Positions 3,324 to 32,000 of a stretch of DNA of 32,000 nt are shown piece by piece. The translations under genes were made by a program, and so were the position numbers. Below the pieces are notes generated by a model that saw nothing but the letters and a program-made list of their open reading frames with translations, was not told the DNA's origin and ran no database searches. Every line of letters starts with the position of its first letter. The stretch's first letter is position 1. Source of the stretch: Candidatus Saccharimonadota bacterium (GTDB taxonomy: Bacteria > Patescibacteriota > Saccharimonadia > Saccharimonadales > UBA4665); contig CP064993.1 in the NCBI GenBank assembly GCA_016699955.1, forward strand, positions 780,001-812,000, written 5' to 3'.

Positions 3324-3348
3324 AGAAGGGGCAAGCCCCTTCTACTGC

Positions 3349-3660: not shown

Positions 3661-4181
3661 TAAATGGAACCCTTTCTTTCGGTTGTCGCTGAAGGTAATC
3701 CCGAAAGAACGGTCTTAGCTGCGCCTTGCATCGAACATAACTTATTAATCTTTCTAGAACCTGAATTGCCGGGCTTATGACCGGCCACCCCTTTTTCGCA
3801 GCCTTCTAGTACGTGGAAGCATAGCACTAATTATCAGATAATACAATCAGTTACCCATTTCGTACTTTGAACTCATGCATTTTGTACTGACTCACCGTAC
3901 CATAAGTACGGCTCCCCCCGTGATTTAAGGAGAAAATGTGTGATGAGTTCAAAGTGCGTTCACAAAAAATATTGGCAGACTACGTAGAGCCAAAAAAATG
4001 TTGTGAATAATCCGCGGTAAAGTTGTCAGAGATAAATTGCTCATCTCGGGTGAAATATTATATTTCTGTAATCTAGCTCTCAGACAAACATGAGGGTTTT
4101 GGCGTATGTTAGAGGTAAAGCGTTTAAACGTAGCGCCGAAACGCCCAAATCAAATTAATTTCGTTGAAAGGAACTCTCGCC

Positions 4182-5104: not shown

Positions 5105-7573
5105 TTATGGTTTCGTTGCATCATAGTAGCCTGCCCTGTACGCATTCAGCGTTGTATTTGAATTTTGCTTGGTGTTGGTTGCGTGATTGCGGCTACCCAC
5201 CCCAGAAAGATTTGTGCCGGCAATAAATGCGGCAAAATCCTTGGCGCCGCAAAGCGCTGTTGCAGACGAAGCGCCTGGCAGCAGGTTTTGCCGTGATCTA
5301 TGCCAGCCATTGTTGAAGTTTGTAATGTTGTATACAGATTTATTGGAAGCGCTTGCCGTAGAAGTGTTGTAACTCCAGCAGTCGGTAAGGCTTGTGTGGG
5401 TGTTTAGGTCGGCGGTGCTGTAGCAGGGCGTCAGGCCTGCGCAATACACGGCGGCGTTTACCGTAACGCTGGCAGTATTACTTGTAGTGCTTCCGCCGGA
5501 ATTGCTACAGGTAAGAGTAAAAGTGTAGGTACCAGCAGCTGCCAGGACAACAGATTGCGAACCACCGCTCGGTGTTTTACTTCCGCTCCACCCCGTACCG
5601 CCCGCTGTGCAGGACGAGGGGCTGTTTCCTGTTGTCCATGCCACGGCTGTGCTGCTGCCCGCAGTAATAGTGCCCGGTGATACGCTAACACTTACCGTTG
5701 GGGTGGCGATGACGGTGATTGTTGCCGAGGCACTGCCAGACCCGACTGCGTTGTTGCACGACAGGCTGTAGGTGTATGTTCCAGCAGGAGTAGGCGACAA
5801 CGTGGTGGTTCCGCTGGCACTTTTTGCTCCGCTCCAGCTTCCGCTGGCGGTGCACGAGCTTGGACTATTTGTGGCCGACCAGCTGAGTGTTGAGCTGCCT
5901 CCTGTTCCTATGGACGTTGGGCTGGCGCTGATGGATACAACTGGCGGATTTGTCGCCCCGCCAGAAGAAGCCGTAACGCTCGTGCTCGCAGTGCCGGTTC
6001 CACCAGCGTTGGCGCAGGATAATGTGTATGTGAAAGTTTGTGCTGTGTTGAGTGCCCCCGTACTTTGCGTGCCACTGCTCGCCTTTGCTCCGCTCCAGCT
6101 TCCGCTGGCGGTGCAGCTGGTGGGGCTATTTGTGGCCGACCAAGTTAAGTTTGAGTTGCCACCTACCGAAACCGAAATTGGGCTTGCACTGAGCGTAATG
6201 ACAGGCTTGGGTGGAGTAGAAACCGTGAGCGGAACATTATTTGCGTAGCCTGTGCCACCAGCGTTCGTGCAGCTGAGATTGTAGGCATATGCACCGGCAT
6301 TCAATGCCCCTGTACTTTGCGTGCCACTGCTCGCCTTTGCTCCGCTCCAGCTTCCGCTGGCGGTGCAGCTGGTGGGGCTATTTGTGGCCGACCAACTTAA
6401 GGTCGAAGACTGCCCCGATATTATGCTGCTTGGATTGACGGTCAGTGACACATTGGGCGGGCTAGGCAGCACTTGAACTGTGGCGGAATCGTCAATAGTA
6501 CCCGTTTCATTCGAGCAGGTAATGGTAAAAACATATTCTTTTATAGTCGACAGATTACTAATTTGTTGGCTCCCGCCCCCAACGGCTTTTGTACCACTCC
6601 AGTCACCACTGGCCAGACATGAGGACGGTGAATTCTCGGTTGTCCAGCTCAAGGTTACGCCGGCGCCAGGCTGAATTGGCCCAGGGGGGGTGCTCGCCAA
6701 AAAAACAACTGGGCTTCCAGGCGGCACTGTTTGCACGGTGAGTTTTGCGCTGATTGATTGGCTGGAGCCTGCGGTATTTTTACATAACAGTGTATAGGTA
6801 TAGGTTTTCGCAGTAATCAAAGTTCCGGTACTCATGCTACCAGAACCCGCTTTGGTTCCGCTCCAGTCACCGCTGGCTGTACATGACGATGGGTTATTGG
6901 TTGCTTCCCATGTGATAGTCGAACTGTCACCGGCAAAGATTAAGTTTGGTTTAGCAGCAATACTCACTGCGGGCACCCCAGTTGTGGCTGTAGACGTGCT
7001 ACCAGGTGCGGAGGTATTTGGTGCTGTTACACTCACAGCCACTGTTTTAAATGCGGTTCCCGTCGCGGTTTTGCAGGTTAGTGTGAACAAGTAGTTCTGT
7101 ACGCTGCTAAGTGTTTGCGTTTGTTCGCTCCCTGTTGTCTTAGACTTTTCTCCGCTCCAGTCGTCACTAGCTGTGCACGTGTTGGGGCTATTTGTTACTG
7201 TCCATTTCAGAGTGCTTTTTTGTCCCTGAACCACGGAGGCTGGTTCGGCGGTGAGTTCTATCGAGGGGGCATTCTTCCCTGTTGTTCCGCCAATTCCGAC
7301 AGCGACCCCGCCGCCCGGTAGTGAGGCATTGTTTTTATCGACACCACTGCTTTGTGGGAGATTGGCGTCTAACCCGTGTTTCTTGCTGAAGTCGGCGTTG
7401 TTGCTCTGCACGGTAAATACTGCGAAGCTGACCATACTGGCAATCATAATGGTCGATATGACAATTATCATCATCTTAGTGCCGCGCGGCCCAAAATGAG
7501 GAAGCTTGTCTCGCCAACTGCCGAGGGGCGTCTTGGGGGCGTTAAACTCGACGACTACCGGTTTAAAATCCAT
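5105..7573 (-). CDS. Anchored surface protein: N-terminal TM, Gly-rich spacer, seven ~84-aa Ig-like repeats, C-terminal cytochrome-b5-like domain
   Basis: TM at aa 34-56. The repeats share L.W.(A/T)TN.P.SCTASG.WSG.K...Y.(F/Y).L.C.N..G with two Cys each. The C-terminus (aa 708-822) aligns with the b5 pattern (H..(T/S)DCW...VYNIT.F...WH...CG.D...NHATN). The start overlaps the upstream stop (TAATG). Confidence 0.85.
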   Translation of the reverse strand: MDFKPVVVEFNAPKTPLGSWRDKLPHFGPRGTKMMIIVISTIMIASMVSFAVFTVQSNNADFSKKHGLDANLPQSSGVDKNNASLPGGGVAVGIGGTTGKNAPSIELTAEPASVVQGQKSTLKWTVTNSPNTCTASDDWSGEKSKTTGSEQTQTLSSVQNYLFTLTCKTATGTAFKTVAVSVTAPNTSAPGSTSTATTGVPAVSIAAKPNLIFAGDSSTITWEATNNPSSCTASGDWSGTKAGSGSMSTGTLITAKTYTYTLLCKNTAGSSQSISAKLTVQTVPPGSPVVFLASTPPGPIQPGAGVTLSWTTENSPSSCLASGDWSGTKAVGGGSQQISNLSTIKEYVFTITCSNETGTIDDSATVQVLPSPPNVSLTVNPSSIISGQSSTLSWSATNSPTSCTASGSWSGAKASSGTQSTGALNAGAYAYNLSCTNAGGTGYANNVPLTVSTPPKPVITLSASPISVSVGGNSNLTWSATNSPTSCTASGSWSGAKASSGTQSTGALNTAQTFTYTLSCANAGGTGTASTSVTASSGGATNPPVVSISASPTSIGTGGSSTLSWSATNSPSSCTASGSWSGAKSASGTTTLSPTPAGTYTYSLSCNNAVGSGSASATITVIATPTVSVSVSPGTITAGSSTAVAWTTGNSPSSCTAGGTGWSGSKTPSGGSQSVVLAAAGTYTFTLTCSNSGGSTTSNTASVTVNAAVYCAGLTPCYSTADLNTHTSLTDCWSYNTSTASASNKSVYNITNFNNGWHRSRQNLLPGASSATALCGAKDFAAFIAGTNLSGVGSRNHATNTKQNSNTTLNAYRAGYYDATKP
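5453..7264 (-). repeat. Intragenic array of seven ~252-bp coding repeats
   Basis: Protein periodicity of 81-86 aa. The DNA block 6060-6143 is identical to 6312-6395. Confidence 0.9.
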
Positions 7574-8597: not shown

Positions 8598-9884
8598 ATG
8601 AAATTTATGAGCTTGGGTAATCAGAAAGATGTTGTTTCGTTTGAGCAAGCGTTAAGCCGGGGGATTCCTCCTGACGGCAGCCTGTACTATCCGGTAAAAA
8701 TCCCGCGTTTGTCTACAGAGCAAGTTGGCGCAATGCCTCAACTTGAGAAAAATGAAATCGATGCGGTCATGCTCGGTGCTTGGCTGAGCGACGAAATTCC
8801 GGCAGACGATCTTCGTAATATTGTCGATGCTGCTGCCTCTTTTGAAACACCAGCGGTTTCTGTTAGCGACAAGCATGTGCTAGAACTTTTTCATGGGCCT
8901 ACTATGGCATTTAAGGATGTCGCAGCGCGCTATCTTGCAGCCCTGATGGGCTATTTTAATGCCAAGACTGGGCGCACCTCTACAGTGCTTGTCGCCACAA
9001 GCGGCGATACGGGTGGGGCGATTGCCCACGGCTTTGGCGGTGTTGAGGGCACGCGAGTTGTCGTCCTCTACCCGAAAGGTCGTGTCAGCCAGCTTCAACA
9101 AGAACAACTGCGCCGCGCCGCCAACAACGTACATACACTGGAAGTTGAGGGCGACTTTGATACATGTCAGTCACTCGTCAAACAGGCTCTGGCCGACAAG
9201 CAGCTAGTAGAAAAGGTTGGCTTGACTTCAGCAAACTCCATTACTGTGGGGCGGCTACTTCCCCAAACACTATATTATGCACGTGTATACGCTCAGCTGG
9301 GCGGGCGCAGAGACTTGCGCTTTGTAGTACCGAGCGGTAACCTCGGCAATGTAACGGGCGGTGTTTTGGCACAGCAGATGGGTATACCAATTGCTTCTTT
9401 CTTGGCAGCCAATAATGCCAATAATGCCATAGATCGGTACGCGCAAACCGGCAACTTTACCCCGTTTGAAGCGGTGCCAACTATGTCAAACGCCATGGAT
9501 ATCGGGGCGCCAAATAACTTACCACGTTTGCGGCAGATTTTTGGTCAGGACGTCAATGCATTTCGCGCGGATATCCTGACTGCGCAAGTAAGTGACGAGC
9601 AAACGGTGGAGACAATCAAGAAGGTTTACGAAAAAACTGGCTACTTGCTTGACCCTCACACCGCAGTGGCGTGGTATGCGAGCGAACAGCACCCAAACAA
9701 AGATCTTCATGACGTTATTGTTTCTACGGCCGCCCCAGAAAAATTTGCCGAAGAAATTATGCGGGAGACAGGCATATTTGTCGATAACACTGCCGAGCTT
9801 GAAAAACTCCGTACGGTGCCTGAGCGCTTCACTTCAATCCCTAACTCCCTCGAAGCACTTAAACAAGAAATTCTAAACTCTTAA
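8598..9884 (+). CDS. thrC: Threonine synthase
   Basis: 428 aa, with the FHGPTMAFKD PLP-lysine motif and overall long-form ThrC layout. Confidence 0.93.
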   Translation: MKFMSLGNQKDVVSFEQALSRGIPPDGSLYYPVKIPRLSTEQVGAMPQLEKNEIDAVMLGAWLSDEIPADDLRNIVDAAASFETPAVSVSDKHVLELFHGPTMAFKDVAARYLAALMGYFNAKTGRTSTVLVATSGDTGGAIAHGFGGVEGTRVVVLYPKGRVSQLQQEQLRRAANNVHTLEVEGDFDTCQSLVKQALADKQLVEKVGLTSANSITVGRLLPQTLYYARVYAQLGGRRDLRFVVPSGNLGNVTGGVLAQQMGIPIASFLAANNANNAIDRYAQTGNFTPFEAVPTMSNAMDIGAPNNLPRLRQIFGQDVNAFRADILTAQVSDEQTVETIKKVYEKTGYLLDPHTAVAWYASEQHPNKDLHDVIVSTAAPEKFAEEIMRETGIFVDNTAELEKLRTVPERFTSIPNSLEALKQEILNS

Positions 9885-9908
9885 CTTATATCTCTCATCT
9901 CTGACATC

Positions 9909-14158: not shown

Positions 14159-15790
14159 TTAGTGGCCGAAGAAGCCGCGGCCTAGTTTGTCGGGTAGCAT
14201 GGTGGTGGAAACCTTTTTGTCGGCTAGAGTTTTGACGACCTCGGTGTCTTTGACAGAGCCAGATGATGTCAGGATGGCGGTGATGCCAGCCTCGGCAAGC
14301 ACAAGTGGGCCGTCTGGGAATGGGAAGAAACTATCGCTGTAAGCCGCCGCGCCTTTTATGTCGTGGTTGCGGCCGAGGGCACGTGTAACGGCGAGCCTAG
14401 CTGCTCCAACCCTGTCCTGCTGGCCGACGCCGTTGCCCAGTAGTTTGCAATCTTTCACAATGGTAATGGTGTTGCTATTGCTTGTGCTACCGACTGCCCA
14501 GGCGAGGATAAGGTCTTTCTTTGTTTGGTCGCTTACTTCGCCGTGTTGCTCGATGTAGTCAGCTGCAAAGTCTACAACAAATGTGTAGTTTGGTTGCACA
14601 AGTATGCCGCCGCGCACATTACGGTACACAGAGGCAGTCTCTAGAGAATCATTACCCAAAGTTGCAAGTGCCGGGTTTGTCACGACACGCAACTTCGCTC
14701 GCCCAAGTATTTCCAACGCCTCCGCAGTGGCTCCACTACCAACGACACCGTCGAGCAGTCGGTTTTGCCCTTCTGGCATGTGATGTTGCATGAGAATGGT
14801 TGCGACATTGGCGTCAATGAGGCCGTTTACCATGACAACTCCGCCAAATATGGCGATTTCATCACCTTCAAGCATGCGCTGTACCGCCTCTACGGTGGTT
14901 TTTGCCGTTCCTGCCCCACAGGCGTTACCATGCTTGACACCGACTGCGATGAACGGCACCTTACCAAAGTTTTTCTCAAAACCAGCAGCAATATGCGTGA
15001 CAGTTTGCAGCAAGCGGTGCATGTCGGTTTCGTTTATGTAGCTCAGTTCCCAACCTTTTTGGTGGGTGAACTGGTCGAGGCCAAGCGGATCAACTGTGAC
15101 GCGGTTATCGGCGTAGAGCCCGGCTGGTGTTTGCCGCGGGTTTTCGCCGTATTTCGTAGGCGCAACACGTTTGCCTATCCAGCCAGCCACCTCTTCCCCA
15201 CCGTGGTACTTGGCGGAAATCATAATGTAGCGCGCACATTCGTACTCGGCAACGGCACACAATTTGTCCCGGAACGCTTTTTCTTCTGTTTTGCCATCTG
15301 TTAACCAGGCAAGCACTTCACTTCGTTGGTCGGCACGGGAAAGCACAATTCGCCGTGCTTTTGCTCCGGCGCGGAGCATAGTTGGACCCCCGATATCGGT
15401 TTTTTCAATCACGCTTTGCAGTGTGGCTTTGCCGCTGGCAATTTCTTCTTCTAGGGGGTACATGTCCACTGCCACGAGGTCGATAAAAGGAATTCCTCTG
15501 TCTTTTAGCTCCTGTAAGTCTTCTGGCCTGTCGGCGTCAGCCAGCAAGCCGCTGTGTATCTCGCGCGAAAGCGTCACAACACGGTGGCCGAGTATGGCTT
15601 CCCCGCCAACTAGCTCTGCGACATCTGTGACCGGTACGCCCGCCTCGGCAACAACTTTGGCGGTTCCGCCAGACGAAATGATGTTCCACCCCAGATCGTG
15701 CAGCCCCTTGGCAAATTCGGCGATTCCAGTTTTGTCATAGACTGAAAGCAAGGCATTTTGATTAGTTTTAAGTAAGTGGTAGATAGACAT
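14159..15790 (-). CDS. purH: Bifunctional AICAR transformylase / IMP cyclohydrolase
   Basis: 543 aa. N-terminal MGS-like domain (ALLSVYDKTGI...SSGGTA), C-terminal AICARFT domain. AAGGAGG RBS. Confidence 0.95.
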   Translation of the reverse strand: MSIYHLLKTNQNALLSVYDKTGIAEFAKGLHDLGWNIISSGGTAKVVAEAGVPVTDVAELVGGEAILGHRVVTLSREIHSGLLADADRPEDLQELKDRGIPFIDLVAVDMYPLEEEIASGKATLQSVIEKTDIGGPTMLRAGAKARRIVLSRADQRSEVLAWLTDGKTEEKAFRDKLCAVAEYECARYIMISAKYHGGEEVAGWIGKRVAPTKYGENPRQTPAGLYADNRVTVDPLGLDQFTHQKGWELSYINETDMHRLLQTVTHIAAGFEKNFGKVPFIAVGVKHGNACGAGTAKTTVEAVQRMLEGDEIAIFGGVVMVNGLIDANVATILMQHHMPEGQNRLLDGVVGSGATAEALEILGRAKLRVVTNPALATLGNDSLETASVYRNVRGGILVQPNYTFVVDFAADYIEQHGEVSDQTKKDLILAWAVGSTSNSNTITIVKDCKLLGNGVGQQDRVGAARLAVTRALGRNHDIKGAAAYSDSFFPFPDGPLVLAEAGITAILTSSGSVKDTEVVKTLADKKVSTTMLPDKLGRGFFGH

Positions 15791-15822
15791 GTCTCCTCCT
15801 TAATTGAATCATGAATTTTGAA

Positions 15823-16224
15823 TTATGAATCATGTAATTTGTTGTACTGCCGGGTAGTTTTTAGTAGGCCAGTTAGTAGCTTGTGGGTTATTACTGATTG
15901 CTTAGCAAGTATTTTAAAATCATCGGCTGTAATATAGCCAACGTCTCGACTAACTAAAAGTTGATTTTGTAGCTCAGTAAGCGAACCGTGAGCCATTGAA
16001 AAAAAATGTGCTTTATCAGGGTAGGATGGTCTTGAAAAACCCTCAGCAATATTTGATGTCACCGAGACAGCCGCTCGGCGAATCTGGCTGGTTAGCCCAA
16101 ATTGCTCGTTGACAGGAAACGTTTTTGTCGTAGTGTAAATGAGAATTACTAATTTATGACCTTCTTTCCGGGTGTCTAAGTCAGTAAAGCTCCTAATGCT
16201 TTTTTTACCTGCTTCATGATTCAT
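15823..16224 (-). CDS. Four-helix-bundle protein (23S rRNA intervening-sequence protein / Avd-like family)
   Basis: 133 aa with QIRRAAVSVTSNIAEG...HGSLTELQNQL motifs typical of the family. ATGA overlap with the purL stop. Confidence 0.85.
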   Translation of the reverse strand: MNHEAGKKSIRSFTDLDTRKEGHKLVILIYTTTKTFPVNEQFGLTSQIRRAAVSVTSNIAEGFSRPSYPDKAHFFSMAHGSLTELQNQLLVSRDVGYITADDFKILAKQSVITHKLLTGLLKTTRQYNKLHDS

Positions 16225-19200
16225 GCTTCATGATTCCTATCCGTTACCCAGTCGTGGGCGTTTACAAACATCTGGAGCCATGGTGAATCCTCTGGCCAGT
16301 CGGAGGGGTGCCAAGAAAGCTGACGGGTCATGAAAGCACGCTCGGGGTGTGGCATCATAATGGTGGCGCGACCGTCTGGTGTGGTAAGTGCTGTGATGCC
16401 CTCTGGTGAGCCATTTGGGTTGGTTGGATAGACTTCTGTCGGTTTGTGGTTGTCATCGACGAATTGTGCCGAAACTAGGCAGCTTTTTACTGCGGATTGC
16501 TGCTCCTGCTTTGACGCAAACGCCGCATAACCCTCGCCGTGTGCGACCGGTATGGGCAACACAGAGCCAGCCATACCCTTGAAAAAGATTGACGGTGATT
16601 CGTTTAACCTGATTTGCGGCAAGCGGGCTTCAAATCGTTCGCTGCGGTTTTGCAGGAACCGTGGCCAGTTATCTGCGCCTGGTATAAGTTCTTTCAGCTC
16701 AGAAAGCATTTGGCAGCCATTGCAGACGCCTAAACTAAAGGTGTTTGGTCGTTCAAAAAATGCTTTGAACTGTGCTCGAAGTTTTGGGTCAAAGAGGATG
16801 GTTTTTGCCCAGCCGCCCCCAGCGCCAAGCACGTCACCGTAGCTAAACCCGCCACAGGCAACAAGGCCGCTAAAGTCATCGAGTTTTGTTGTGCCAGTAA
16901 TGAGGTCGTTTAGGTGAACGTCTACGGCTAAAAAGCCGGCGCGGTTGAAGGCGGCGGCCATTTCGATTTGACCGTTGACACCTTGCTCACGGAGGATGGC
17001 AATTTGTGGGCGGTTGATATACCTTTTCTTATCTTTTTGAAGAGAGGCTTGCCCCTCTTGAGGTGTTTTCTTTGCTTCGCTCGAAAGCAGCCTCCGCTCC
17101 CCCGCTCGCTGTTCGCTCGCGGTGTGCGCTCGTTCGGTCAGCGGTGTACCCTCATTTGTTTGTTGCCTTAATGCCGCTACTCTTAACTCATAACTCTTAT
17201 CTCTTAACTTTAGCAGCGGGTTTAGCCCGGGGTTATTGTCATGGTTAATCAAAGCGTATTCTTGGTCGGCGCAGGCGGGGTTGTCGCGCAATTTTTGTAT
17301 GAGGTAACTGGTTTCTGCCCACCACTGTTCGAGCTGAGCGCGAGTACTTTTGTATACTATTTTCTGCCCATCGCTAAAAACAATATCTTGCGTTTTTGTG
17401 GGCTTGCCAATTGTGTACGCGGAGTCGCCAAAAACCCGGGATACAGTTTTTTCGTCTGTTGATTTTACTTGGATGACTACGCCGAGCTCTTCGTTAAATA
17501 GTTTTTCAATTGTTTCTCCGGGAAGAGCGGCGATTTTTATATCAAGTCCGCAACGGCTTGCAAATGCCATTTCGCATAGAGTTGTAAGTATTCCGCCATC
17601 TGAGCGGTCGTGGTATGCCAAAATCTTTCCGTCTGCTTTTAATTTTGTCAGTGAGTTAAAGAAGGATTTTAAGAGCGTCGGGTCAGCATCGGGTGTTTTG
17701 TCGCCTGTTTGGTTGTAAGCTTGCGCAAGCGCCGAGCCTCCCATTCGAGTCTGCCCACCGGAAAGATCGACAAACATGAGCAGCGAATCGGTAGTGGTGT
17801 CGAGCTGAGGCGTTAGTGTTTTGGTGACGTTAGTCACTGGGCTAAAGCCGGTTATAATGAGGCTAAGTGGTGATGTAACTGATTTTGCTTCTTTGCCATC
17901 AGTCCAAGTTGAACGCATGCTCAGGGAATCTTTGCCGACAGGAATAGTCAAGCCAAGCGCCGGGCAAAAATCTTCGCCGAGTATGTGGACAGTATCGTAG
18001 AGGGCTTGGTCTTCACTACCTTGTCCGGCCGCCGCCATCCAGTTGGCTGATAGTTTTATGTCTGATAGTTTTTTGACGTCGGCAGCCAGCATGTTTGTGA
18101 TGGTTTCGGCGACAGCCATACGGCCGGAGGCCGGTGCGTTGGAAACAGCCAGCGGCGTGCGTTCGCCCATGGTCATTGCCTCACCATGATTGCTCGTAAA
18201 CCCAACGGCAGAAACGGCTACGTCACTAACAGGCACCTGCCATGGTCCAACCATTTGATCACGGGTAATTAGGCCGGTGACGGTACGGTCGCCGATGGTT
18301 ATGAGGAACTTTTTGCTACCAACAGCGGGTACGTGAAGCACGCGCTCTACGGCCTCTTCAATGTCAATATTTGCAGTATTGAATGAAGCTGTCTGAGCCA
18401 ATACAGATGTATAGGTGCGTGTCATTTTGGGAGGTTTTCCAAAGAGTGTACTCATGGGTAGGTCTACGGTGTCGTTGTCGAGTAGATTATCATGCACGAC
18501 AAGTCGATCTTTGTCTGTCGCAGTACCAATGACGGTGAATGGACATCGTTCTCGTTTGCATATACTCGCGAAACGCTCAACGTCTGCTTCCCTTAGTCCT
18601 ATGACGTAGCGTTCCTGGGCCTCGTTGCACCAGATTTCCATAGGCGACATACCCGGGTCGGCATTGTCGATATTTCGTAGTTCAACCTCTGCTCCTAGGC
18701 CGGCGTCATGCACAAGCTCCGGCACGGCGTTACAGTAACCGCCGGCACCAATGTCGTGAATCATGACGATGGGGTTTTCGCTACTCGCCCAGCACGTGTC
18801 AATGACTTCCTGCGCGCGGCGTTCCATTTCGCCGTTTCCTCGCTGGACTGATGCAAAGTCGAGATCCGCGCTGCTTGCGCCGGTTTGCATGCTGCTGGCT
18901 GCGCCGCCGCCGAGACCAATGAGCATAGCTGGCCCACCGAGGATGATAATTTTGTCGCCGGCTTTTAGCTTGCCTTTTTGAACGTGCTGGTCGCGGATGT
19001 TCCCCAGACCGCCGGCAATCATGATCGGTTTATGATAGCCGCGTACGCTTTGACCATCGTGTTGCTCAAAGGTACGGAAGTAGCCAGCTAGGTTTGGGCG
19101 ACCAAATTCGTTAGCGAACGCCGCGCCGCCTAAAGGAGCGTCTATCATAATGCCCAGCGGTGAGGTAATCCTGCTTGGTTTTCCGTATGGTTTTTCCCAA

Positions 19201-20231
19201 GGTTGTCCTGCGCCAGGCAAGTTCAAATTTGATACGCTGAATCCGGCCAGTCCCATCTTGGGTTTGGCGCCGCGACCGGTGGCGCCCTCGTCCCGGATTT
19301 CACCGCCAGTACCGGTGGCTGCGCCCGGAAACGGTGCAATGGCAGTCGGGTGATTATGTGTCTCAACTTTTATAACAGTATGAATCGGTTCTTTGCTGTA
19401 ACCATATTCATGCGTTTCTGGGTTTGGGAAAAAGCGATCAGCGACAGGACCAGCGATTACGGCGGCGTTATCTGAATATGCACTGAGCACGTCTTCGCCG
19501 CCACGCTCAAACGTGTTACGGATCATTTTGAATAAACTTTTTGGCTGCGGCTTACCGTCTATAACCCAGTCGGCATTGAATATTTTGTGGCGACAGTGTT
19601 CGCTGTTGACTTGGCCGAACATCATGAGTTCGGCGTCAGAGGGGTTACGGCCAAGTTCGGTGTAGGCGGCAACAAGATATTCAATTTCATCGGCACTGAG
19701 GGCAAGCCCCTGCTCTGTGTTTGCCTTTTCTAGCGCGTTTTTGCCACCCTCAAGCACATTGACGATAATGAGTGGCTTCGGTGATGGTTCGGCAAAAAGT
19801 GCCTTGGCCGAACTCAGTGAGTCTAGAACAGCCTCGGTCATGCGGTCATGGAGTAGTGGTTCGATTGTCCCGCGCTCGATTGGCCGAGACGATTCGATAT
19901 AATAAGCCGTTCCTCGCTCAATTCGTTTGATACTAGATAGACCAGCATTGTGTCCAATGTCGGTTGCCTTTGATGACCAGGGAGATATTGTACCTGGCCG
20001 AGGTGTTACCAAAAATAGTTCGCCGCTTCTTGCGCCGTTGTACGGGGTGTCGTAGGCTAGGAGCTTACTGAGCTCTTTGTCTTCATGTGACGAAAGCTTT
20101 TTATCGCCGTTTATGAAGTGTACATACTCTGCGGTAACACTGCCTATGTGTTTGTCGACTGACTGCAACTGTTTGAGCAAATTTTTCGCACGGAAATCCG
20201 ATATTGCGTTGACCCCTTTGTATATCTGCAT
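16221..20231 (-). CDS. purL: Phosphoribosylformylglycinamidine synthase, single-chain large form
   Basis: 1336 aa, with the FGAM synthetase core and a C-terminal glutaminase domain (GVCNGCQM, PHPER). Confidence 0.97.
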   Translation of the reverse strand: MQIYKGVNAISDFRAKNLLKQLQSVDKHIGSVTAEYVHFINGDKKLSSHEDKELSKLLAYDTPYNGARSGELFLVTPRPGTISPWSSKATDIGHNAGLSSIKRIERGTAYYIESSRPIERGTIEPLLHDRMTEAVLDSLSSAKALFAEPSPKPLIIVNVLEGGKNALEKANTEQGLALSADEIEYLVAAYTELGRNPSDAELMMFGQVNSEHCRHKIFNADWVIDGKPQPKSLFKMIRNTFERGGEDVLSAYSDNAAVIAGPVADRFFPNPETHEYGYSKEPIHTVIKVETHNHPTAIAPFPGAATGTGGEIRDEGATGRGAKPKMGLAGFSVSNLNLPGAGQPWEKPYGKPSRITSPLGIMIDAPLGGAAFANEFGRPNLAGYFRTFEQHDGQSVRGYHKPIMIAGGLGNIRDQHVQKGKLKAGDKIIILGGPAMLIGLGGGAASSMQTGASSADLDFASVQRGNGEMERRAQEVIDTCWASSENPIVMIHDIGAGGYCNAVPELVHDAGLGAEVELRNIDNADPGMSPMEIWCNEAQERYVIGLREADVERFASICKRERCPFTVIGTATDKDRLVVHDNLLDNDTVDLPMSTLFGKPPKMTRTYTSVLAQTASFNTANIDIEEAVERVLHVPAVGSKKFLITIGDRTVTGLITRDQMVGPWQVPVSDVAVSAVGFTSNHGEAMTMGERTPLAVSNAPASGRMAVAETITNMLAADVKKLSDIKLSANWMAAAGQGSEDQALYDTVHILGEDFCPALGLTIPVGKDSLSMRSTWTDGKEAKSVTSPLSLIITGFSPVTNVTKTLTPQLDTTTDSLLMFVDLSGGQTRMGGSALAQAYNQTGDKTPDADPTLLKSFFNSLTKLKADGKILAYHDRSDGGILTTLCEMAFASRCGLDIKIAALPGETIEKLFNEELGVVIQVKSTDEKTVSRVFGDSAYTIGKPTKTQDIVFSDGQKIVYKSTRAQLEQWWAETSYLIQKLRDNPACADQEYALINHDNNPGLNPLLKLRDKSYELRVAALRQQTNEGTPLTERAHTASEQRAGERRLLSSEAKKTPQEGQASLQKDKKRYINRPQIAILREQGVNGQIEMAAAFNRAGFLAVDVHLNDLITGTTKLDDFSGLVACGGFSYGDVLGAGGGWAKTILFDPKLRAQFKAFFERPNTFSLGVCNGCQMLSELKELIPGADNWPRFLQNRSERFEARLPQIRLNESPSIFFKGMAGSVLPIPVAHGEGYAAFASKQEQQSAVKSCLVSAQFVDDNHKPTEVYPTNPNGSPEGITALTTPDGRATIMMPHPERAFMTRQLSWHPSDWPEDSPWLQMFVNAHDWVTDRNHEA

Positions 20232-21337
20232 TAGCGCACCTCCAAGGTTTCTGCTGAAAATGTTAGATTCTTTGGCTTGATAATCACCTGCTTCTTACCT
20301 CGTTTGACTTTTCCACCCCTGATGGCTTTTACCCCATTACGCTTAGCGGCTGCGAGAACCGAGTCGGTGTCCTGTGGCGCAACATACAGCACAAACCCGA
20401 CGCCCATGTTGAAATTGCCGTACATTTCGCTGTCATCAACACGGGACTCGGCTTGCATGTGTAGAAATTCTGGTTGGGGCTCCAGTATGGTTTCGATTTC
20501 GTAGGTAAAAGCCGCGTTGGCACGCATTAGCTTGCGCCAGCCATGACCGGTGACGTTTACCATGTAGTGAGGAACAACGCCCGCCTCGAGTACATCACGG
20601 ACGAGAGGTACATACAGTAGTGTAGGGGTTAAGATTGCCTCACCAAATAGTTTCCCGTTGGATAGTGTTGTTTCATAGAGTTGGGGGGTTTTTTCGTATA
20701 AATGCCGCACAAATGAAATACCATTGGCGTGTATACCACTACTTTCTACTAGAATAATTTCGTCACCGTCAGCTAGCTTATCTCCAAGAACGAGATTTTC
20801 TTTTGGGTTAATTATTCCTACGGCCGAACCTCCCAAATCAATTGTGTCTGGGTTAATGATGCCTTTAAGCGCTGGTGTTTCACCGCCCCCCCACGCTGCA
20901 CCAATTGCATTACAAGCCCCTGCCCAGCCAGTCACAAGATCGGTAGCTCGCTTACGGTCGTTCATCCAAGCGCCGTCACCGAGAGCAAAGTAAGCATTTA
21001 CAACCTGCGGCAAGGCCCCAACGACAATTAGGTCATTGACAATCATTGCTACCGTGTCTTGGGCGAGTGAGTCATAGTAAGTTTTTCCGGTGGTTTTACG
21101 CATTGCGTCTGCCACGAGATTCTTAGTACCGAGTCCTTCTATGACAAGTGCACGGTATGCATCTTTTTCTTCCCAAACATAGGCCGATTCTCCTCGGCTC
21201 GCACCGACTTCAGTAGCGCCGAAACGTGCATGATTTTGAGCTGTCGACAGCGCAGCTTTTTGCGCTAGCACCTTCACCGGATCCATCGCGCTGTAATCCA
21301 CACCAGTCTGTGCATAGGTTGTTGGATTGTTTGCCAT
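20231..21337 (-). CDS. purM: Phosphoribosylformylglycinamidine cyclo-ligase (AIR synthase)
   Basis: AIR-synthase-type N- and C-terminal domains. I prefer the ATG at 21337, preceded by GAAAGGAGGG, over the TTG at 21352 used by the ORF track. The stop overlaps the purL start (TAATG). Confidence 0.88.
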   Translation of the reverse strand: MANNPTTYAQTGVDYSAMDPVKVLAQKAALSTAQNHARFGATEVGASRGESAYVWEEKDAYRALVIEGLGTKNLVADAMRKTTGKTYYDSLAQDTVAMIVNDLIVVGALPQVVNAYFALGDGAWMNDRKRATDLVTGWAGACNAIGAAWGGGETPALKGIINPDTIDLGGSAVGIINPKENLVLGDKLADGDEIILVESSGIHANGISFVRHLYEKTPQLYETTLSNGKLFGEAILTPTLLYVPLVRDVLEAGVVPHYMVNVTGHGWRKLMRANAAFTYEIETILEPQPEFLHMQAESRVDDSEMYGNFNMGVGFVLYVAPQDTDSVLAAAKRNGVKAIRGGKVKRGKKQVIIKPKNLTFSAETLEVR

Positions 21338-21512
21338 AGACCCTCCTTTCAACTAATAAAAAGGCACGCATTGCGCCACCTCGTCCGTACTCACCTATTG
21401 TAACAACATTATCTATTCTACTCTACTCGACTTACGAGGGATATTTCATTGTTTCAGCATAGCCAAACGCTTCATACATGGCAGGTAAACAGCAGAGGTT
21501 TAATGGGGCTGG

Positions 21513-22227: not shown

Positions 22228-22682
22228 ATGACTAATATTGTTTTTGATTGGAAGCGGACGCTGTACGAACCCGAGGAGGATGAGCTTATTGGCGGGGCGC
22301 TTGAACTTCTGGAATGGCTGGGCAGCCAGGAGATTCCCACGGTACTTATCGGTAAGGGCGACACTGATATGTACGGTAAAGTAGATCGGCTAGGAGTACG
22401 GCAGTATTTCTCGCAAGTTATATTTCGCGAGGGTGCAAAGATACAGATCTATTTGCCCTTTTTGTCAACACGTTTGATGCTAAGCAAACAGTCTTCATCG
22501 GTGACCGTGTACGCTCAGAGCTTGCGGTTGGAAATGTGCTTGGCGCTACAACGATTTGGGTGAAGCAAGGCAAGTTTGCAAACGAGTTACCAGAACTGGA
22601 TAGTGAGAAGCCCACCTCTACAGTTGCCTCATTGACGGAGGTGAAAAACCTTCTCACCAAACTTCAGCAAGTCAAATACTAG
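22228..22682 (+). pseudogene. HAD-like hydrolase interrupted by a -1 frame change at 22437-22440 (AAAG)
   Basis: Frame 1 reads ...FREGAK and then degenerates. The -1 frame continues as DTDLFALFVNTFDAKQTVFIGDRVRSELAVGNVLGATTIWVKQGKF... to a TAG at 22680-22682. Confidence 0.65.
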
Positions 22683-23197
22683 GAGTGGCTTTCTAGGTAG
22701 CCCTGCCAGCCTTGTTGTTGGAGTTTTGCGTCGGCGGTGAGGACGCTGTCGTGTTGATCGGCGCGGAAAGCGACGTACTTATTGGCAAGAGTGGTGTCAC
22801 TCAAGGCTAGGATTTCTACTGCCATAAGGGCGGCGTTGCGGGCACCATTTTCGGGCATGGTTGCTAGCGGGATGCCGGGGGGCATTTTTATACTGGACCA
22901 AAATGCTTCGTGGCCGTGGTGGTCGCGTTTTATGGGAACGGCAATGACGGGCAGCGTGGTGTGTGAGGCCGTCATGCCGGGGAGGTGTGCCGACCCGCCT
23001 GCCCCAGCGATGATAACTTTCAGTCCGCGCTCGGCTGCAGTCCGCGCGTACTCTTCCATGACATCTGGCGTGCGATGCGCCGAAACCACGCGTACCTCAT
23101 AACTAATCCCAAAATTATCTAGCATTTTGGCAGCTTCACTCATGATGTCGAGATCGCTATCTGACCCCATTATGATGCCGACAACTGGTTTGTTCAT
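22679..23197 (-). CDS. purE: N5-carboxyaminoimidazole ribonucleotide mutase (class I PurE)
   Basis: GSDSD and AGGSAHLPGM motifs, a purK partner nearby, and an AAGGAGG RBS. Confidence 0.95.
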   Translation of the reverse strand: MNKPVVGIIMGSDSDLDIMSEAAKMLDNFGISYEVRVVSAHRTPDVMEEYARTAAERGLKVIIAGAGGSAHLPGMTASHTTLPVIAVPIKRDHHGHEAFWSSIKMPPGIPLATMPENGARNAALMAVEILALSDTTLANKYVAFRADQHDSVLTADAKLQQQGWQGYLESHS

Positions 23198-23210
23198 ACA
23201 ATCCTCCTTA

Positions 23211-23292
23211 GATTTAAGAGATAAGAGTCATGAGTCATGAGTTTTGACCAACCGTGCGAAATATCGCTCTTATCTCTTATCTCATATCTCTT
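23211..23292 (-). repeat. Gene-less heptad-repeat hairpin element between purK and purE
   Basis: AAGAGATAAGAG (23216-23227) is perfectly complementary to CTCTTATCTCTT (23267-23278). Both arms continue as 7-nt-periodic GAG/CTC repeats. The loop is 39 nt. The element abuts the purE RBS. Confidence 0.8.
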
Positions 23293-23306
23293 GTCGTTAT
23301 ACCACA

Positions 23307-24440
23307 TCATATGCTCAGTAAGCTCCGGGCTTTTCGGGCGTTTTTACGAGCAGTTTCTATGTCCGAACCTGTGACGGTGATGTGACCCATTTTGCGGTCG
23401 ATTTTGGTCGGGGATTTGCCATAAAGGTGGATGCTTGCACCTGGGATGGCCAAAACATCAGGGGTGCCTTTTACCTGGGTTTCGCCGTCTCGCTCTCCCA
23501 GGATGTTTATCATGACGGCTGCGGCTACGACGAGGCTTGTGTCCCCCAGTGGTAAACCGGCAATGGCGCGGATGTGTTGCTCGAACTGTGAAGTGCGGCA
23601 GGCTTCGGTGGTGTAGTGGCCGCTGTTGTGAACTCGTGGTGCGATTTCGTTTACTAGTACTTCACCATCTCGCGTCAGGAAAAGCTCTATGCCAAATGTT
23701 CCCGCACCGCTAAGCAGCCCAGCGACCTGGCGGGCAACGGCTTCGGCTTGCTTCATTATTTCAGCCGAAACTGGCGCTGGCACAAGTACCTCGGTGCAAA
23801 TGTTCCGCTTGTGAATAGTCTGGACGATGGGGTAGAGTGCGACATTGCCCTGCATGTCTCGCGCAACCATAACGGCTAGTTCGCTTTCAAAGTCGACGAG
23901 GCCTTCGGCGTAAAGAGCCTTGCCCGCAAAATTCTTTAGTGCCTGATCAAGATCAGCTTCAGAGCGAACAACCATGTTGCCACGGCCGTCGTAGGCGCCG
24001 TGACGGGTTTTGACTATCATGCAACCGCCGAACTGCTTGAGGGCATCCCGAGCGGAACTTTCCCCTGTTATTTCGGCGAATGGGGCTAGGGGAACTTTAT
24101 TATCTTGGAGAAACTGCTTCTGAGCATACTTGTCCTGGATGAGCCGGATGGTGCTGGGCGACGGGTTTATTGTCGCCCCATTTTGTTCCAACTTTGCTAA
24201 TGCGTCGGCGTCAAGATGCTCGATTTCCACGGTAATGTAGTTTGACTCGGTCGCCAGTTGTTCGAGCGCGCGTTCGTCATATAGGTTGGCGACGATTTGC
24301 CGCGCTCCTACCTGCTCTGCTGGGCAATGTTTGCCTGGGTCAACAACAACAATTTCAAAGCCAAGCGGTTTGGCGGCAAGCGTGAGCATGCGACCTAACT
24401 GTCCGCCGCCGACAATACCAATAGTCTCGACTGCTCCCAT
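23307..24440 (-). CDS. purK: N5-carboxyaminoimidazole ribonucleotide synthase
   Basis: 377 aa, ATP-grasp, with an N-terminal GIVGGGQLGRM motif. Confidence 0.93.
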   Translation of the reverse strand: MGAVETIGIVGGGQLGRMLTLAAKPLGFEIVVVDPGKHCPAEQVGARQIVANLYDERALEQLATESNYITVEIEHLDADALAKLEQNGATINPSPSTIRLIQDKYAQKQFLQDNKVPLAPFAEITGESSARDALKQFGGCMIVKTRHGAYDGRGNMVVRSEADLDQALKNFAGKALYAEGLVDFESELAVMVARDMQGNVALYPIVQTIHKRNICTEVLVPAPVSAEIMKQAEAVARQVAGLLSGAGTFGIELFLTRDGEVLVNEIAPRVHNSGHYTTEACRTSQFEQHIRAIAGLPLGDTSLVVAAAVMINILGERDGETQVKGTPDVLAIPGASIHLYGKSPTKIDRKMGHITVTGSDIETARKNARKARSLLSI

Positions 24441-24558: not shown

Positions 24559-24594
24559 TTACTCTTTTGCGCTATTACTCTGTATACTAAAGCC
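24559..24594 (+). promoter_or_regulatory. Candidate promoter of the Crp/Fnr gene: TTACTC-18-TATACT-6-ATG
   Basis: Shares the 12-mer ACTCTGTATACT with the purC upstream region. No Shine-Dalgarno sequence. Confidence 0.4.
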
Positions 24595-25218
24595 ATGATG
24601 CGGGAGAAAAGAGTACGAAAAGAACAGATTGTGCTCTACCAGGGTGAAGCTCTAAGCGGCGTATATGTCATTTCTGAAGGTATTATTCGTGCTTACAGTA
24701 TCCTTGGAACGGGCAGTGAGATAAATATTGCTCTCTATGGCCCGGGAGACTACTTCCCTGTTGAAACGGCGTACCATAGCGCCCCGGCCACACTTTTTTA
24801 CTACGAAGCTTTGACAGACTGCGTGCTTCACAATCAGACAAATGAAGATTTTCAGTCACTTCGAGCAGCAAATGACAGTACTCCTGCGCAAGACAGCAAG
24901 CGGTATGTGGGGGCACTGCTCCATGTCAATGCGCTTGGTCAGGCTAACGCGTACGAAAAACTGGGTCACACCTTGCGTTACCTAGCAATCAGATTTGGCA
25001 TGGCTATGAGCGGCAAAGGATTTGTGAGGATAAATATTCGGCTGACACAACAGGATCTAGCAAATTTGTGCACAATGTCACGCGAGACAGTCAGTATAGA
25101 GCTCGCAAAGTTGAAGGCTAAGAACGCAGTAAGTGAAAAGTTGAAGCTCTACACCGTCAACTTACCGCAGCTCAATAGTTTGCTCGGTGAGGACAACATC
25201 GATGAAATTATTATTTAA
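24595..25218 (+). CDS. Crp/Fnr-family transcriptional regulator
   Basis: N-terminal cNMP-binding-like beta-roll and a C-terminal HTH (RLTQQDLANLCTMSRETVSIELAKL). Confidence 0.85.
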   Translation: MMREKRVRKEQIVLYQGEALSGVYVISEGIIRAYSILGTGSEINIALYGPGDYFPVETAYHSAPATLFYYEALTDCVLHNQTNEDFQSLRAANDSTPAQDSKRYVGALLHVNALGQANAYEKLGHTLRYLAIRFGMAMSGKGFVRINIRLTQQDLANLCTMSRETVSIELAKLKAKNAVSEKLKLYTVNLPQLNSLLGEDNIDEIII

Positions 25219-28815: not shown

Positions 28816-28912
28816 CCCAGAATAATCCACTTTATTCATCTTCTTAAAATCACTGTAGCCAGCATTATGTCATCACTGTAGGTGCTGATGTGCGGGTTGC
28901 ACCGGAGAACTC

Positions 28913-28947
28913 TTAACTCTAAACCCATAACTCTGTATACTGAAAGC
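28913..28947 (+). promoter_or_regulatory. Candidate promoter of purC: TTAACT-17-TATACT-6-ATG
   Basis: Hexamers read directly. There is no Shine-Dalgarno sequence in the 6-nt gap. Confidence 0.4.
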
Positions 28948-29906
28948 ATGAGTGAAAAAATTCTTGAGGGAACGAGTTTTTCGTTGCCTGGTCAACAGGC
29001 GGTGTATCACGGCAAAGTACGTGATGTCTATGACTTTGGCGACAAACTGATGATGGTAACGAGCGACCGCTATAGCGCCTTTGACCGGATTCTGGCGGTG
29101 GTCCCTAACAAGGGTGCACTACTGACGGCAACTAGCCGTTGGTGGTTCGAGCAAACAGCGCACATAGTACCGAATCATATTATTTCCTACCCCGATCCAA
29201 ACGTCAGCTACTGCCACAAATACGAAGTTATACCGCTGGAAATGGTTGTACGTGGCTACATAACGGGCGTGACAAATACATCCCTGTGGCATACCTACTC
29301 AGAAGGTCAGCGTAATTACGGTGCTTTCACTCTACCAAACGGGCTGAAAAAGAATGATAAGCTAACCGAACCAGTGCTGACGCCGACAACGAAGTTCGAA
29401 ATCCATGACCGCAACCTGACACCGGCCGAAGCGCTGACAGAAGGACTTTTGAAGGACGAAGTTTGGCAGCGCGTCAGTAACTTTGCGGTTCAGCTTTTTA
29501 CATTTGGTCAGAAAAAGCCGAAGCAAAAGGACTGCTGCTGGTCGACACTAAGTACGAGTTTGGCCTTACCCCACAAGGTGAAATTATATTGATAGATGAA
29601 ATACACACCCAGGATTCGTCGCGCTATTGGCTGGCCGAAACCTACCATCAGCGCATTGCCCAGGGCATGGAACCAGAAAACTATGACAAAGAATATTTGC
29701 GACTGTGGTTCAAGGAGCGTTTCGACCCCTACAGTGACACGCCCGCGCCAGAAGTGCCAGCCGATATAATTGCCGAGTTGGAGCGCCGCTACCTGTTTGT
29801 TTACGAAAGCCTGACAGGCGAAGTTTTTGAGCAGCCCGATACGGAAAATATTGAAAAACGGATTGAAACAAATTTGCGTCAAGCGCTGGGTCAATATGAT
29901 AGTTAA
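28948..29906 (+). pseudogene. purC: SAICAR synthase interrupted by a -1 frame change at 29512-29517 (AAAAAG)
   Basis: Frame 1 (ATG 28948) reads MSEKILEG...YHGKVRDVYDFG...SDRYSAFDR... to FGQKK and then degenerates. The -1 frame continues as AEAKGLLLVDTKYEFGLTPQGEIILIDEIHTQDSSRYW... to 29906. Confidence 0.85.
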
Positions 29907-29984
29907 GGGTTACGAGATAGGAGATAAGAATTGTGCTTTGCATAGTGCATTTCGTGCCTTAACTCACATATCCTATCCCTTAAC
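29902..29984 (+). repeat. Gene-less heptad-repeat hairpin element between purC and purB
   Basis: The purine arm TAAGGGT TACGAGA TAGGAGA TAAGAAT (29902-29930) faces the pyrimidine arm CCTTAACTCACATATCCTATCCCTTAAC (29957-29984). The terminal 8 bp GTTAAGGG/CCCTTAAC are perfect. The element abuts the purB RBS. Confidence 0.75.
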
Positions 29985-30008
29985 TTTAACCGCTAAGGAG
30001 GAAAGACG

Positions 30009-31421: not shown

Positions 31422-31506
31422 TAAGATAGACAAGATTTTTAACTAAGTTTTTCAGAAAGATAACACCGCCAATATGATAGGTATTGCTCAAGAATTAGCC
31501 ACAAAT

Positions 31507-32000
31507 CCACGCATTTCGCACCTTAACCACGCATACGAGCAGCCAGCGCTAGCTGGATGCTCGGTTTTATGACCTCCCACTTTTGTTGGTACATGCTGTT
31601 TTGTATATTGTTTAGCCTGTCCTGAGATCTTCTCTTGTGTCTTTGTATCCAGGTGAGCATAGAGAGCCCAATGTGGTTTCTCTGTGCTCGGCCAGTGTTG
31701 GCCAGACAGCGAGTAAAACCACAGGTTTGTTTGAGTTCACGATGCAACACTTCGACGCTCCAACGTCTTTCAAAGTACTCTTTGACTTGGCTCCTGGATA
31801 GATCGAGCTTGCTAGTACCAATGTAATCCGTGCGACCGTGTTTGGTCACGAACCGGAATAGCTTGATCCATCCGTATCCTTTGAGGTGTACGACCAGACC
31901 TTCATCTGGTATCTCGAGGGTTTTAATCTGTACATGTGGTTTGTTGACCAAACGGTTACTACGTAACCCCATCACCCAATCCCAGCCATGAGAGCGAGTG
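31507..32000 (-). mobile_element. Insertion sequence copy 2, inverted relative to copy 1 and truncated by the window edge
   Basis: The reverse complement of 31507-32000 matches 1543-2036 except for a 4-of-6 cluster at 31622-31627. Identity stops exactly at the IR tip. Confidence 0.9.
31523..32000 (-). CDS. Transposase C-terminal part of IS copy 2 (partial, continues beyond the window)
   Basis: The protein is identical to 1391-2020 except Q to S at one residue. Confidence 0.85.
   Translation of the reverse strand, partial: TRSHGWDWVMGLRSNRLVNKPHVQIKTLEIPDEGLVVHLKGYGWIKLFRFVTKHGRTDYIGTSKLDLSRSQVKEYFERRWSVEVLHRELKQTCGFTRCLANTGRAQRNHIGLSMLTWIQRHKRRSQDRLNNIQNSMYQQKWEVIKPSIQLALAARMRG

Follow-up and report, generated by a model that had tools for sequence, protein, structure and literature searches.

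Our analysis concerned a 32,000-nt stretch of DNA from a Candidatus Saccharimonadota bacterium (CP064993.1, positions 780,001–812,000), here called the window, whose coordinates are used throughout, and in particular its purL gene, which encodes an unusually long linker between two enzyme domains. The additional segment in this linker is likely a translated, in-frame copy of a small palindromic repeat, non-autonomous, low in copy number and restricted to its clade, that resides at a site permissive for insertion. The gene (16221–20231, minus strand) specifies a large single-chain formylglycinamidine ribonucleotide (FGAM) synthase of 1336 aa, as was seen from the list of open reading frames (ORFs) and from alignment to Salmonella PurL (1T3T, E = 0). 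The best homologues of the window PurL were the PurLs of Candidatus Saccharibacteria and Saccharimonadales.

An in-frame insertion between the FGAM-synthetase and glutaminase domains had been proposed in an initial annotation of the window, and alignments to 1T3T and to Saccharibacteria PurLs bore this out. The linker comprises residues 1005–1075 (71 aa; 17007–17219, minus strand). In a MAFFT alignment of the 60 best PurL homologues, the distance from ...PGL[TN] to [KR][IV]AI[FL]RE was 21–26 residues in most Saccharibacteria and 71 in the window PurL, and phmmer comparison with Salmonella PurL placed query residues 1009–1073 (65 aa) opposite chain residues 1031–1046 (16 aa). These differences in spacing therefore correspond to an insertion of ~49–55 aa. 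Comparison of linker DNA across eleven related purL loci refined the initial account, as the insert proved to be a composite of two separable modules, a heptad array (17180–17210) and a 120-nt hairpin core (17037–17156). Related DNA loci are labeled L001 and so on below, and database proteins P0003 and so on. Neither a terminator nor a promoter was found on the sense strand within the insert.

In an AlphaFold2 model of residues 620–1336, built on a 54-sequence alignment, the flanking domains were predicted with confidence (predicted template modeling score 0.83), and the predicted local distance difference test (pLDDT) value fell below 50 at residues 1026–1068, across the core. A weak helix was the only structure predicted in the insert, at residues 1013–1026 (SYELRVAALRQQTN; pLDDT 53–59). 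Most simply, the model suggests that the insert is a disordered, hydrophilic lengthening of the tether, and the peptide presumably has no catalytic role.

The segment has no stops in the frame that is used in any of the eight purL copies, and the other sense frames mostly have 1–3, which indicates that it is translated. That the insert is instead an intervening sequence removed after transcription or translation, in the manner of an intron, an intein or a ribosomal intervening sequence (IVS), appears extremely improbable. The insert is highly structured, and the family of a neighboring 23S_rRNA_IVP gene was reportedly first found in 23S rRNA intervening sequences (PMC4990558). However, in 10 genomes the insert has both an open frame and a length that is a multiple of three, features that would be needless if it were removed. 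No intron family in Rfam matched it, and at ~55 aa, without Cys/Ser/Thr-...-HN junction residues, it is far too short for an intein. In addition, we know of no bacterial mRNA re-ligation pathway for RNase III-type IVS excision.

The hairpin core (17037–17156, minus strand; translated as NEGTPLTERAHTASEQRAGERRLLSSEAKKTPQEGQASLQ) forms four to five hairpins and scored 101.9 bits in cmsearch with R1, a covariance model trained solely on the purL linker inserts of seven Saccharibacteria. In its family layout the core is ~125 nt long and runs TGAGG, hairpin 1, CCGAAC, hairpin 2 (with a C-GNA-G triloop), hairpin 3, GGGGGAG, and hairpins 4 and 5, the apex of hairpin 4 being GAGCGAAGCGA and hairpin 5 being AAGAGGGGC-GA-GCCCCTCTT. 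Stems are short and GC-rich, with GNRA-like or GNA loops. In the window the terminal hairpin 5 (17040–17059, minus strand; AAGAGGGGCAAGCCTCTCTT) reads AAGAGGGGC-AA-GCCTCTCTT, and compensatory changes in this hairpin were seen in relatives, e.g., AGGAGAGGC/GCCTCTCCT in L004. The window core is the purL copy most decayed in its base pairing, with 27 Watson-Crick pairs, 2 G.U pairs, 5 gaps and 4 mismatches at the 38 modeled pairs. Its hairpin 2 lacks the 3' arm through a 6-nt in-frame deletion and its hairpin 4 has two broken pairs, and with parts of two hairpins lost it would seem to be a decaying copy.

A search of the window with R1, with filters on and off, returned the purL copy and the intervals 3146–3245 and 3247–3346, and nothing else. 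These latter units, which were outside the training set, scored 51.5 bits (E ~ 1e-10), and therefore the resemblance that the initial annotation had pointed out between the far-end hairpin of the purL insert and a 101-bp repeat at 3146–3347 is homology, not chance. The repeat consists of two tandem 101-bp units (3146–3346, plus strand; found by repeat search and by R1) that are 100% identical and lie between a gene for an RRM protein (3349–3660, minus strand) and a glycosyltransferase gene (2089–3057, minus strand). This intergenic copy has stops in all six frames; in a six-frame motif scan one frame reads NEPVRSAG, the motif that appears as EPVRSAG in the PurL inserts of relatives. Its unit had a fold z-score of -4.16, versus -1.97 for the whole purL linker.

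Further copies were sought by scanning species-representative genomes for a pattern and then applying R1, and the following figures hold among the matches listed. At least two more strong copies were present in the metagenome-assembled genome (MAG) JBGAWL01, which also holds the L005 purL copy. One of them, L042 (91.7 bits), lies inside topA, in an 829-aa ORF, and is read in a different frame from that used in purL (...RRGASPSS... vs ...EEGRAPL...). Around it, a stretch of ~77 TopA residues has no counterpart in solved TopA structures and separates two blocks that align contiguously to those structures. The other, L028 (84.7 bits), is intergenic, upstream of a gene and directly after a heptad array. 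R1 matches spanned the full model, with E-values from 1e-10 to 1e-32. The family thus far comprises three copies in the window, three in JBGAWL01 (purL, topA and intergenic) and purL copies in eight genomes, and the in-frame copies have two, unrelated host genes only, in the purL linker and in a topA loop, with different frames. Weaker intergenic relatives in other Saccharibacteria (L070, L087 and L017) resemble the 101-bp unit of the window in having a small hairpin, CTTTAGGGGG, a long one whose stems covary and whose CGAA-TTTAC-TTCG apex is conserved, and then GGGGC(G/A)AGCCCC.

The translated element was also recognizable in protein databases. A peptide profile run against an index of 5.8 billion proteins gave 138 candidates, with 3 small hypothetical ORFs. 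Five "hypothetical proteins" of 65–94 aa from Saccharimonadales (P0121, P0122, P0123, P0125 and P0126) match the translated element, and some of them begin in a heptad-like manner (MRHE(P/S)R..., GLSSLN.EG.S.PEPVRSAGGERSEPGEGGL...QEGRAPL). In these cases intergenic copies of the element have probably been miscalled as ORFs. Rfam gave no match in the window at gathering thresholds, and in E-value mode gave only generic, sub-threshold matches to terminator-like hairpins.

The second module, the heptad array (17180–17210, minus strand; detected by repeat search and pattern scan), reads AAGTTAA GAGATAA GAGTTAT GAGTTAA GAG and is translated as KLRDKSYELR. It is built of imperfect, 7-nt-periodic GAGNNAN units, replaced by GAATCNN in some genomes; the forms seen were GAGTTAA, GAGATAA, GAGTTAT and GAGTCAT, or GAATCAT and GAAGCAT, and relatives' PurLs accordingly read ESRDMSHESR or ESGMWNLES. 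A perfect array would place TAA or TGA in all three frames. The purL array is open in one of three, in which the in-frame heptad is GAGTTAT and not GAGTTAA, whereby TAA is avoided, in agreement with the initial observation that the array is read through without meeting a stop. A 7-bp stem that brackets the window heptads in the minimum-free-energy fold was taken as chance, since relatives lack it.

The initial annotation had matched this array to an arm at 23213–23241, in the purK/purE spacer, in 25 of 29 positions. Direct comparison of GTTAAGAGATAAGAGTTATGAGTTAAGAG (reverse complement of 17180–17208) with TTTAAGAGATAAGAGTCATGAGTCATGAG (23213–23241) gave the same 25/29, with the purL segment lying at 17180–17208, 3 nt from the 17183–17211 originally assigned to it, and repeat search extended the match between the array and the purK/purE arm to 34 nt at 85% complementarity. 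It had been recognized at the outset that such a match might arise by chance among low-complexity, purine-rich tracts. The heptads are indeed of low complexity, and a loose hairpin pattern matched many unrelated phyla in the genome scan, true copies being told apart only on rescanning with R1. However, a 21-nt pattern with up to 3 mismatches matched the purL linker and the purK/purE spacer only and was never found in 100 shuffles, and periodic arrays in the window numbered 7 matching windows at period 7 and 0–1 at periods 5, 6, 8, 9 and 10, related loci likewise having arrays at period 7 only. A 27-nt heptad stretch (GAGATAAGAGTTATGAGTTAAGAGTAG) is the same in the window and L004 at 27/27 bases despite PurL proteins that are 78% identical. 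Together with the R1 E-values over the full model, these results leave chance similarity, whether among purine-rich or GC-rich tracts, a negligible probability.

Heptads and hairpins also occur together between genes. In the intergenic DNA of L010 and L028, heptad arrays are followed by GNRA-capped hairpins, and therefore the purL linker represents a typical intergenic composite that happens to be open in one frame. No convincing right-hand, inverted heptad arm was seen at the 3' end of the purL insert.

Comparison of identity by codon position revealed how the core is conserved. Positions 1, 2 and 3 were 77, 78 and 43% identical in the upstream purL flank and 87, 92 and 50% identical in the downstream flank, the usual signature of protein-level selection, with third positions near saturation. 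In the core the values were 68, 70 and 73%, without codon periodicity, and therefore the core is conserved as nucleic acid rather than as peptide. RNAalifold on the seven purL cores gave 38 pairs in five helices, with compensatory double changes in 18 of the 38. When 13 copies were aligned to the model, 95% of cells were paired and 30 of the 38 pairs covaried, although this alignment was fitted to the model and its pair counts lean towards structure. None of 500 shuffles was as good, and slid controls were ~40% paired. On the modeled sense strand G.U pairs outnumbered A.C pairs 24 to 5, and loops and spacers (GCGAAGC, CCGAAC and GGGGGAG) were conserved while stems varied.

These data bear on whether the insert is an adaptation of the protein, that is, a longer tether or an interaction segment particular to the lineage, from which the intergenic DNA would have been copied out. 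Every purL copy keeps the frame open, the prediction includes a weak helix at SYELRVAALRQQTN, and parts of the peptide (SEQRAGE..L.SS and PQEGRAPL) recur among relatives. However, conservation of the core has no codon-position periodicity, topA reads the element's DNA in a different frame, and the intergenic copy at 3146–3346 has stops in six frames. Furthermore, there is free variation in the stem-encoded residues, accompanied by compensating DNA changes, the core is missing in several close relatives, and its pLDDT is below 50. We therefore consider a protein-level origin very unlikely.

The same data lend partial support to a different alternative, in which the hairpin array would act in cis as a functional nucleic-acid structure, maintained by selection inside the ORF, with the peptide as a by-product. 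Its role might lie in mRNA processing or stability, in pausing translation at the domain boundary so as to aid co-translational folding, or in offering a single-stranded-DNA site to a binding protein. The covariation, the excess of G.U pairs, the core third positions at 73% identity (vs 43–50% in the flanks), the conserved loops on variable stems and the CGAA-TTTAC-TTCG apex kept by intergenic relatives all argue for it. Against it, hairpins 2 and 4 are incomplete in the window copy, and the linker z-score is only -1.97; four relatives (P0004, P0005, P0009 and P0011) have no core; the units at 3146–3346 are antisense to both flanking genes; Rfam gave no match even at permissive thresholds; the insert has no sense-strand terminator or promoter; and the pair counts carry the bias noted above. 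The suggestion in the initial annotation of a structured RNA site inside the ORF is therefore supported in part, as regards structure, by covariation and the G.U excess. We regard selection for such a function as an unlikely primary explanation, albeit one that overlaps with an in-frame repeat copy and does not exclude it. The hairpins may well be kept at the DNA or RNA level by the needs of the element itself, or by exchange with its other copies, and not on behalf of PurL.

The linker has also changed rapidly. Similarity between cores did not track similarity between host genes. For example, the PurLs of P0012 and P0016 are 94% identical and their cores 61% identical, with different heptads; for the window and L001 the respective values are 79% and 85%. 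Relatives without the core were found (P0004, P0005, P0009 and P0011), and in L004 part of the core is tandemly duplicated within purL. Between P0004/P0005 and P0037, whose PurLs are 96% identical, there is a 147-nt indel immediately 3' of the heptads. The three copies in JBGAWL01 (L005, L042 and L028) are only 63–68% identical, and therefore show no sign of recent copying or concerted evolution. Across the clade, five or more sites in purL are hot spots for indels, and the gene contains several families of repeats. Gain, loss and replacement among near-identical PurLs thus mark the linker as one of several fast-turnover hot spots, a history more in keeping with activity of the element or with recombination than with one ancient insertion event.

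In-frame repeat inserts were noted at other sites in relatives' PurLs as well (P0010, P0012, P0016, P0017, P0003, P0008 and P0015; L001, L005, L007 and L132), and PurL length in the clade ranges from 1275 to 1499 aa. A family beginning DFLDEERTEPYENTVKGVPESKNSL... (DFL(D/A)EERTEPYENTVK..PE.KNSL) follows PurL residue 346 in one genome and 391 in others, and hairpin repeats of the VILSEA..VERS...IPRQARNDS type follow residues 614–618 and 904.

Overall, our data support the proposal of the initial annotation that a repeat element was retained in frame in a permissive linker, based on the homology to intergenic units, the topA copy, codon-position identities, turnover and low pLDDT. We envisage that a composite of heptads and core came to lie, by landing or by recombination, in the surface-exposed tether that joins the synthetase domain to the glutaminase domain, where extra disordered, hydrophilic sequence would be tolerated and where only copies that are free of stops and a multiple of three in length would survive. 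Elsewhere the modules would be intergenic, with heptad arms as inverted repeats upstream of Shine-Dalgarno sequences, able to enclose cargo, and the core as a tandem pair.

Several observations weigh against an in-frame copy of a repeat of this kind. The evidence for current mobility is indirect, and the copy number is low: in ~240 kb of related loci only the purL copies and the other copies named above were found, a specific pattern run over metagenome contigs gave 2 weak matches only, and the peptide profile found just 4–5 relevant small ORFs among 1.84 billion representative proteins. Neither terminal inverted repeats nor a target-site duplication could be defined for the element, and the only transposase in the window, of IS4/IS5-type with a DDE motif, is associated with 22-bp terminal repeats unlike the element's ends. 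The nearest relative of the window PurL in the homologue search is 76% identical, so a close allele was lacking for comparison. In the sole near-isogenic filled/empty pair, L131 and L010, a 147-nt segment stands in place of 14 nt with no visible duplication, which looks like a replacement and not a clean insertion, and the P0037 segment is a different multi-hairpin sequence without an R1 match. Lastly, covariation as strong as that observed could mean that the structure is functional rather than merely selfish.

Heptad arms were most often paired and inverted, with a Shine-Dalgarno sequence directly downstream. The inverted repeat in the purK/purE spacer (23209–23295; arms 23209–23242 and 23264–23295) encloses a short spacer and no cargo, and adjoins the purE Shine-Dalgarno sequence on its upstream side. 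Another, also with a short spacer, lies directly upstream of the purB Shine-Dalgarno sequence (29898–29985, plus strand). Single, pyrimidine-type arms occur at 9873–9908 (plus strand), where the arm overlaps the thrC stop and terminates at the ATG of the following gene, and, in looser form, at 28912–28947 (plus strand), a few bases short of an in-frame ATG (28949) that is close to the 5' end of the purC reading frame, for which the listed ORF starts at GTG 28882. All of these were detected by repeat search. Heptad arrays were also seen to provide the last codons and the stop of upstream genes (L007, 14478–14503; L004, 5855–5884; window, 16205–16238 and 9873–9908), and the PurL C-termini derived from them are ...EIRDMS* (L007), ...SQES* (L004) and ...NHEA* (window). 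This placement fits a role of the array as a supplier of stops and ATG starts in all three frames.

One heptad inverted repeat encloses a gene (15805–16238, minus strand; arms 16205–16238 and 15805–15837; repeat search). The gene, situated between purL and purH (15823–16224, minus strand), encodes a 133-aa four-helix-bundle protein of the 23S_rRNA_IVP family (PF05635), and its start codon shares the sequence ATGA with the purL stop codon, within the left arm. At the orthologous purL-purH junction the inverted repeat holds the IVP gene in the window, L001, L003 and L132, and a bare spacer of 25–60 nt in L008, L005, L010 and L131. Since these relatives keep the inverted repeat without the gene, the IVP gene behaves as optional cargo. 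In the related DNA that was fetched, tblastn with the IVP protein matched the orthologous purL-purH locus only, and therefore the association of IVP with heptads cannot be generalized. A more far-reaching interpretation is that an undescribed system of mobility or recombination in Saccharibacteria uses heptad inverted repeats as cassette sites, with cargo that may be none, multi-hairpin modules or the Avd-like IVP gene; the hairpins would be recognition structures in single-stranded DNA or RNA, and the purL and topA copies would reflect ongoing, structure-targeted insertion. We consider such a system doubtful, and the in-frame repeat copy remains our preferred interpretation.

The surrounding genes form a purine-synthesis cluster, comprising purK (23307–24440), purE (22679–23197), purM (20231–21352) and purH (14159–15790), all on the minus strand, with purC and purB further along the window on the plus strand (purB, 30009–31421). 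The purC gene is broken into two ORFs (28882–29592 and 29589–29906), and its conserved frame changes at an A5 run, GGTCAGAAAAAGCC, at ~29480–29530. The split is a single-base homopolymer frameshift and could reflect a sequencing error, a pseudogene or a slippage site. A 25-nt motif, ATWACTCTGTATACTRAARSCATGA, which includes an extended -10-like TGTATACT, is common to 24574–24598 and 28927–28951. Its first copy ends at the ATG that opens the ORF of a Crp-like regulator (24595) and its second at the in-frame ATG noted above (28949), close to the purC ORF's 5' end. Elsewhere in the window, 5105–7573 encodes an 822-aa surface-type protein with DUF5979 and PKD-like matches and six tandem repeats of ~252–294 nt that are 60–94% identical, and a degenerate repeat-like sequence was noted at 3837–3872. 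An insertion sequence (IS) occupies 954–2036; its terminal inverted repeats, of 22 bp, are CCACGCATTTCGCACTTTAACC / GGTTAAGGTGCGAAATGCGTGG, and its ORF at 1391–2020 encodes a DDE_Tnp_1 transposase. A second, inverted copy at 31493–32000, 99% identical over 494 nt, runs off the end of the window.

Our literature searches found no report of selfish DNA comparable to Rickettsia palindromic elements (RPEs) inside housekeeping genes of Saccharibacteria or other bacteria of the candidate phyla radiation (CPR). The hosts have ultra-small, reduced genomes, and the element thus provides a parallel to Rickettsia in a separate reduced-genome lineage. In addition, purL amounts to a natural experiment that can show where on its surface a large multidomain enzyme accepts insertions. 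Inserts of this kind inflate apparent protein novelty and seed spurious small ORFs (P0121–P0123), and they can mislead domain annotation in MAGs. Covarying hairpins inside an ORF, together with heptad inverted repeats of variable cargo, are concrete leads to a putative mechanism of mobility or RNA processing.

Several known systems share features with the element described here. Among structured repeats, REPs (repetitive extragenic palindromes) are reportedly single 20–40-bp palindromes tagged GTAG or CGTC that reach high copy number and are accompanied by a RAYT (REP-associated tyrosine transposase) gene (PMC3733652). Like REPs, BIMEs (bacterial interspersed mosaic elements) and SPRITEs, the element forms GC-rich extragenic hairpins 3' of genes or between convergent genes, and the unit at 3146–3346 has an A6-hairpin-T5 module that resembles a bidirectional terminator. 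It differs in being low-copy and in lying also inside ORFs. A tag-like GGGGGTAG precedes the hairpin only in the 3146–3346 units, purL, topA and the other copies having GGGGGAG(T/C)G, and no Y1/RAYT gene was present among the 30 window ORFs scanned against Pfam. [quoted passage not shown] The two ends of our element (AATGAGG... and ...CCCCTCTTCAA) do not form an inverted pair and are unlike the 22-bp repeats of the window IS at 954–975 and 2015–2036.

The heptads on their own resemble the TAACTGA heptamer direct repeats found intergenically in Beggiatoaceae, Cyanobacteria and Bacteroidetes (MacGregor 2015, PMC4679880). Those too are 7-nt-periodic and stop-bearing, are placed just upstream of starts or across the stop of the upstream gene, and occasionally enter ORFs, only in a stop-avoiding orientation and frame and at the periphery or between modules (PMC4679880). 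Corresponding placements were found here at the purK/purE, purL/IVP/purH, purC/purB and thrC/next-gene junctions and at the purL-purH junctions of relatives. The differences are that our units are imperfect GAGNNAN or GAATCNN, that the arrays usually come as inverted pairs with a spacer, hairpin core or gene between them, and that the hosts are Saccharibacteria. The 23S rRNA intervening sequences that carry an IVP/S23p ORF in Coxiella and Leptospira provide a comparison for the neighboring IVP cassette and not for the purL insert; they too reportedly have a PF05635 four-helix-bundle gene in the loop of a long inverted repeat (PMC4990558). In our case heptad arrays make up the arms of the repeat, which is situated between pur-operon protein genes rather than in rRNA.

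The closest counterparts are the RPEs, which, like Coxiella QMITEs, make in-frame fusions (PMC10969869, PMC5896051). According to the summary of Ogata et al. (2000) in PMC10969869, RPEs are hairpin repeats of ~100–150 bp in a small, reduced genome, have no transposase of their own, and occur both between genes and in frame in unrelated housekeeping genes, where they add ~40–50 residues at fold-compatible sites. The Saccharibacteria element likewise has dispersed homologous copies that form hairpins, with both in-frame and intergenic members and a site compatible with the fold. It differs in its far lower copy number; in consisting of 4–5 small GNRA-capped hairpins plus heptads, as opposed to one long palindrome; in stems that vary between copies with compensating changes; and in its CPR/Patescibacteria host. 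The comparison is one of functional class, by features, and not of sequence family, resemblance to RPEs in sequence not being expected, and it is in this sense that the purL insert is an in-frame palindromic repeat of a known, RPE-like sort, newly seen in a CPR bacterium.

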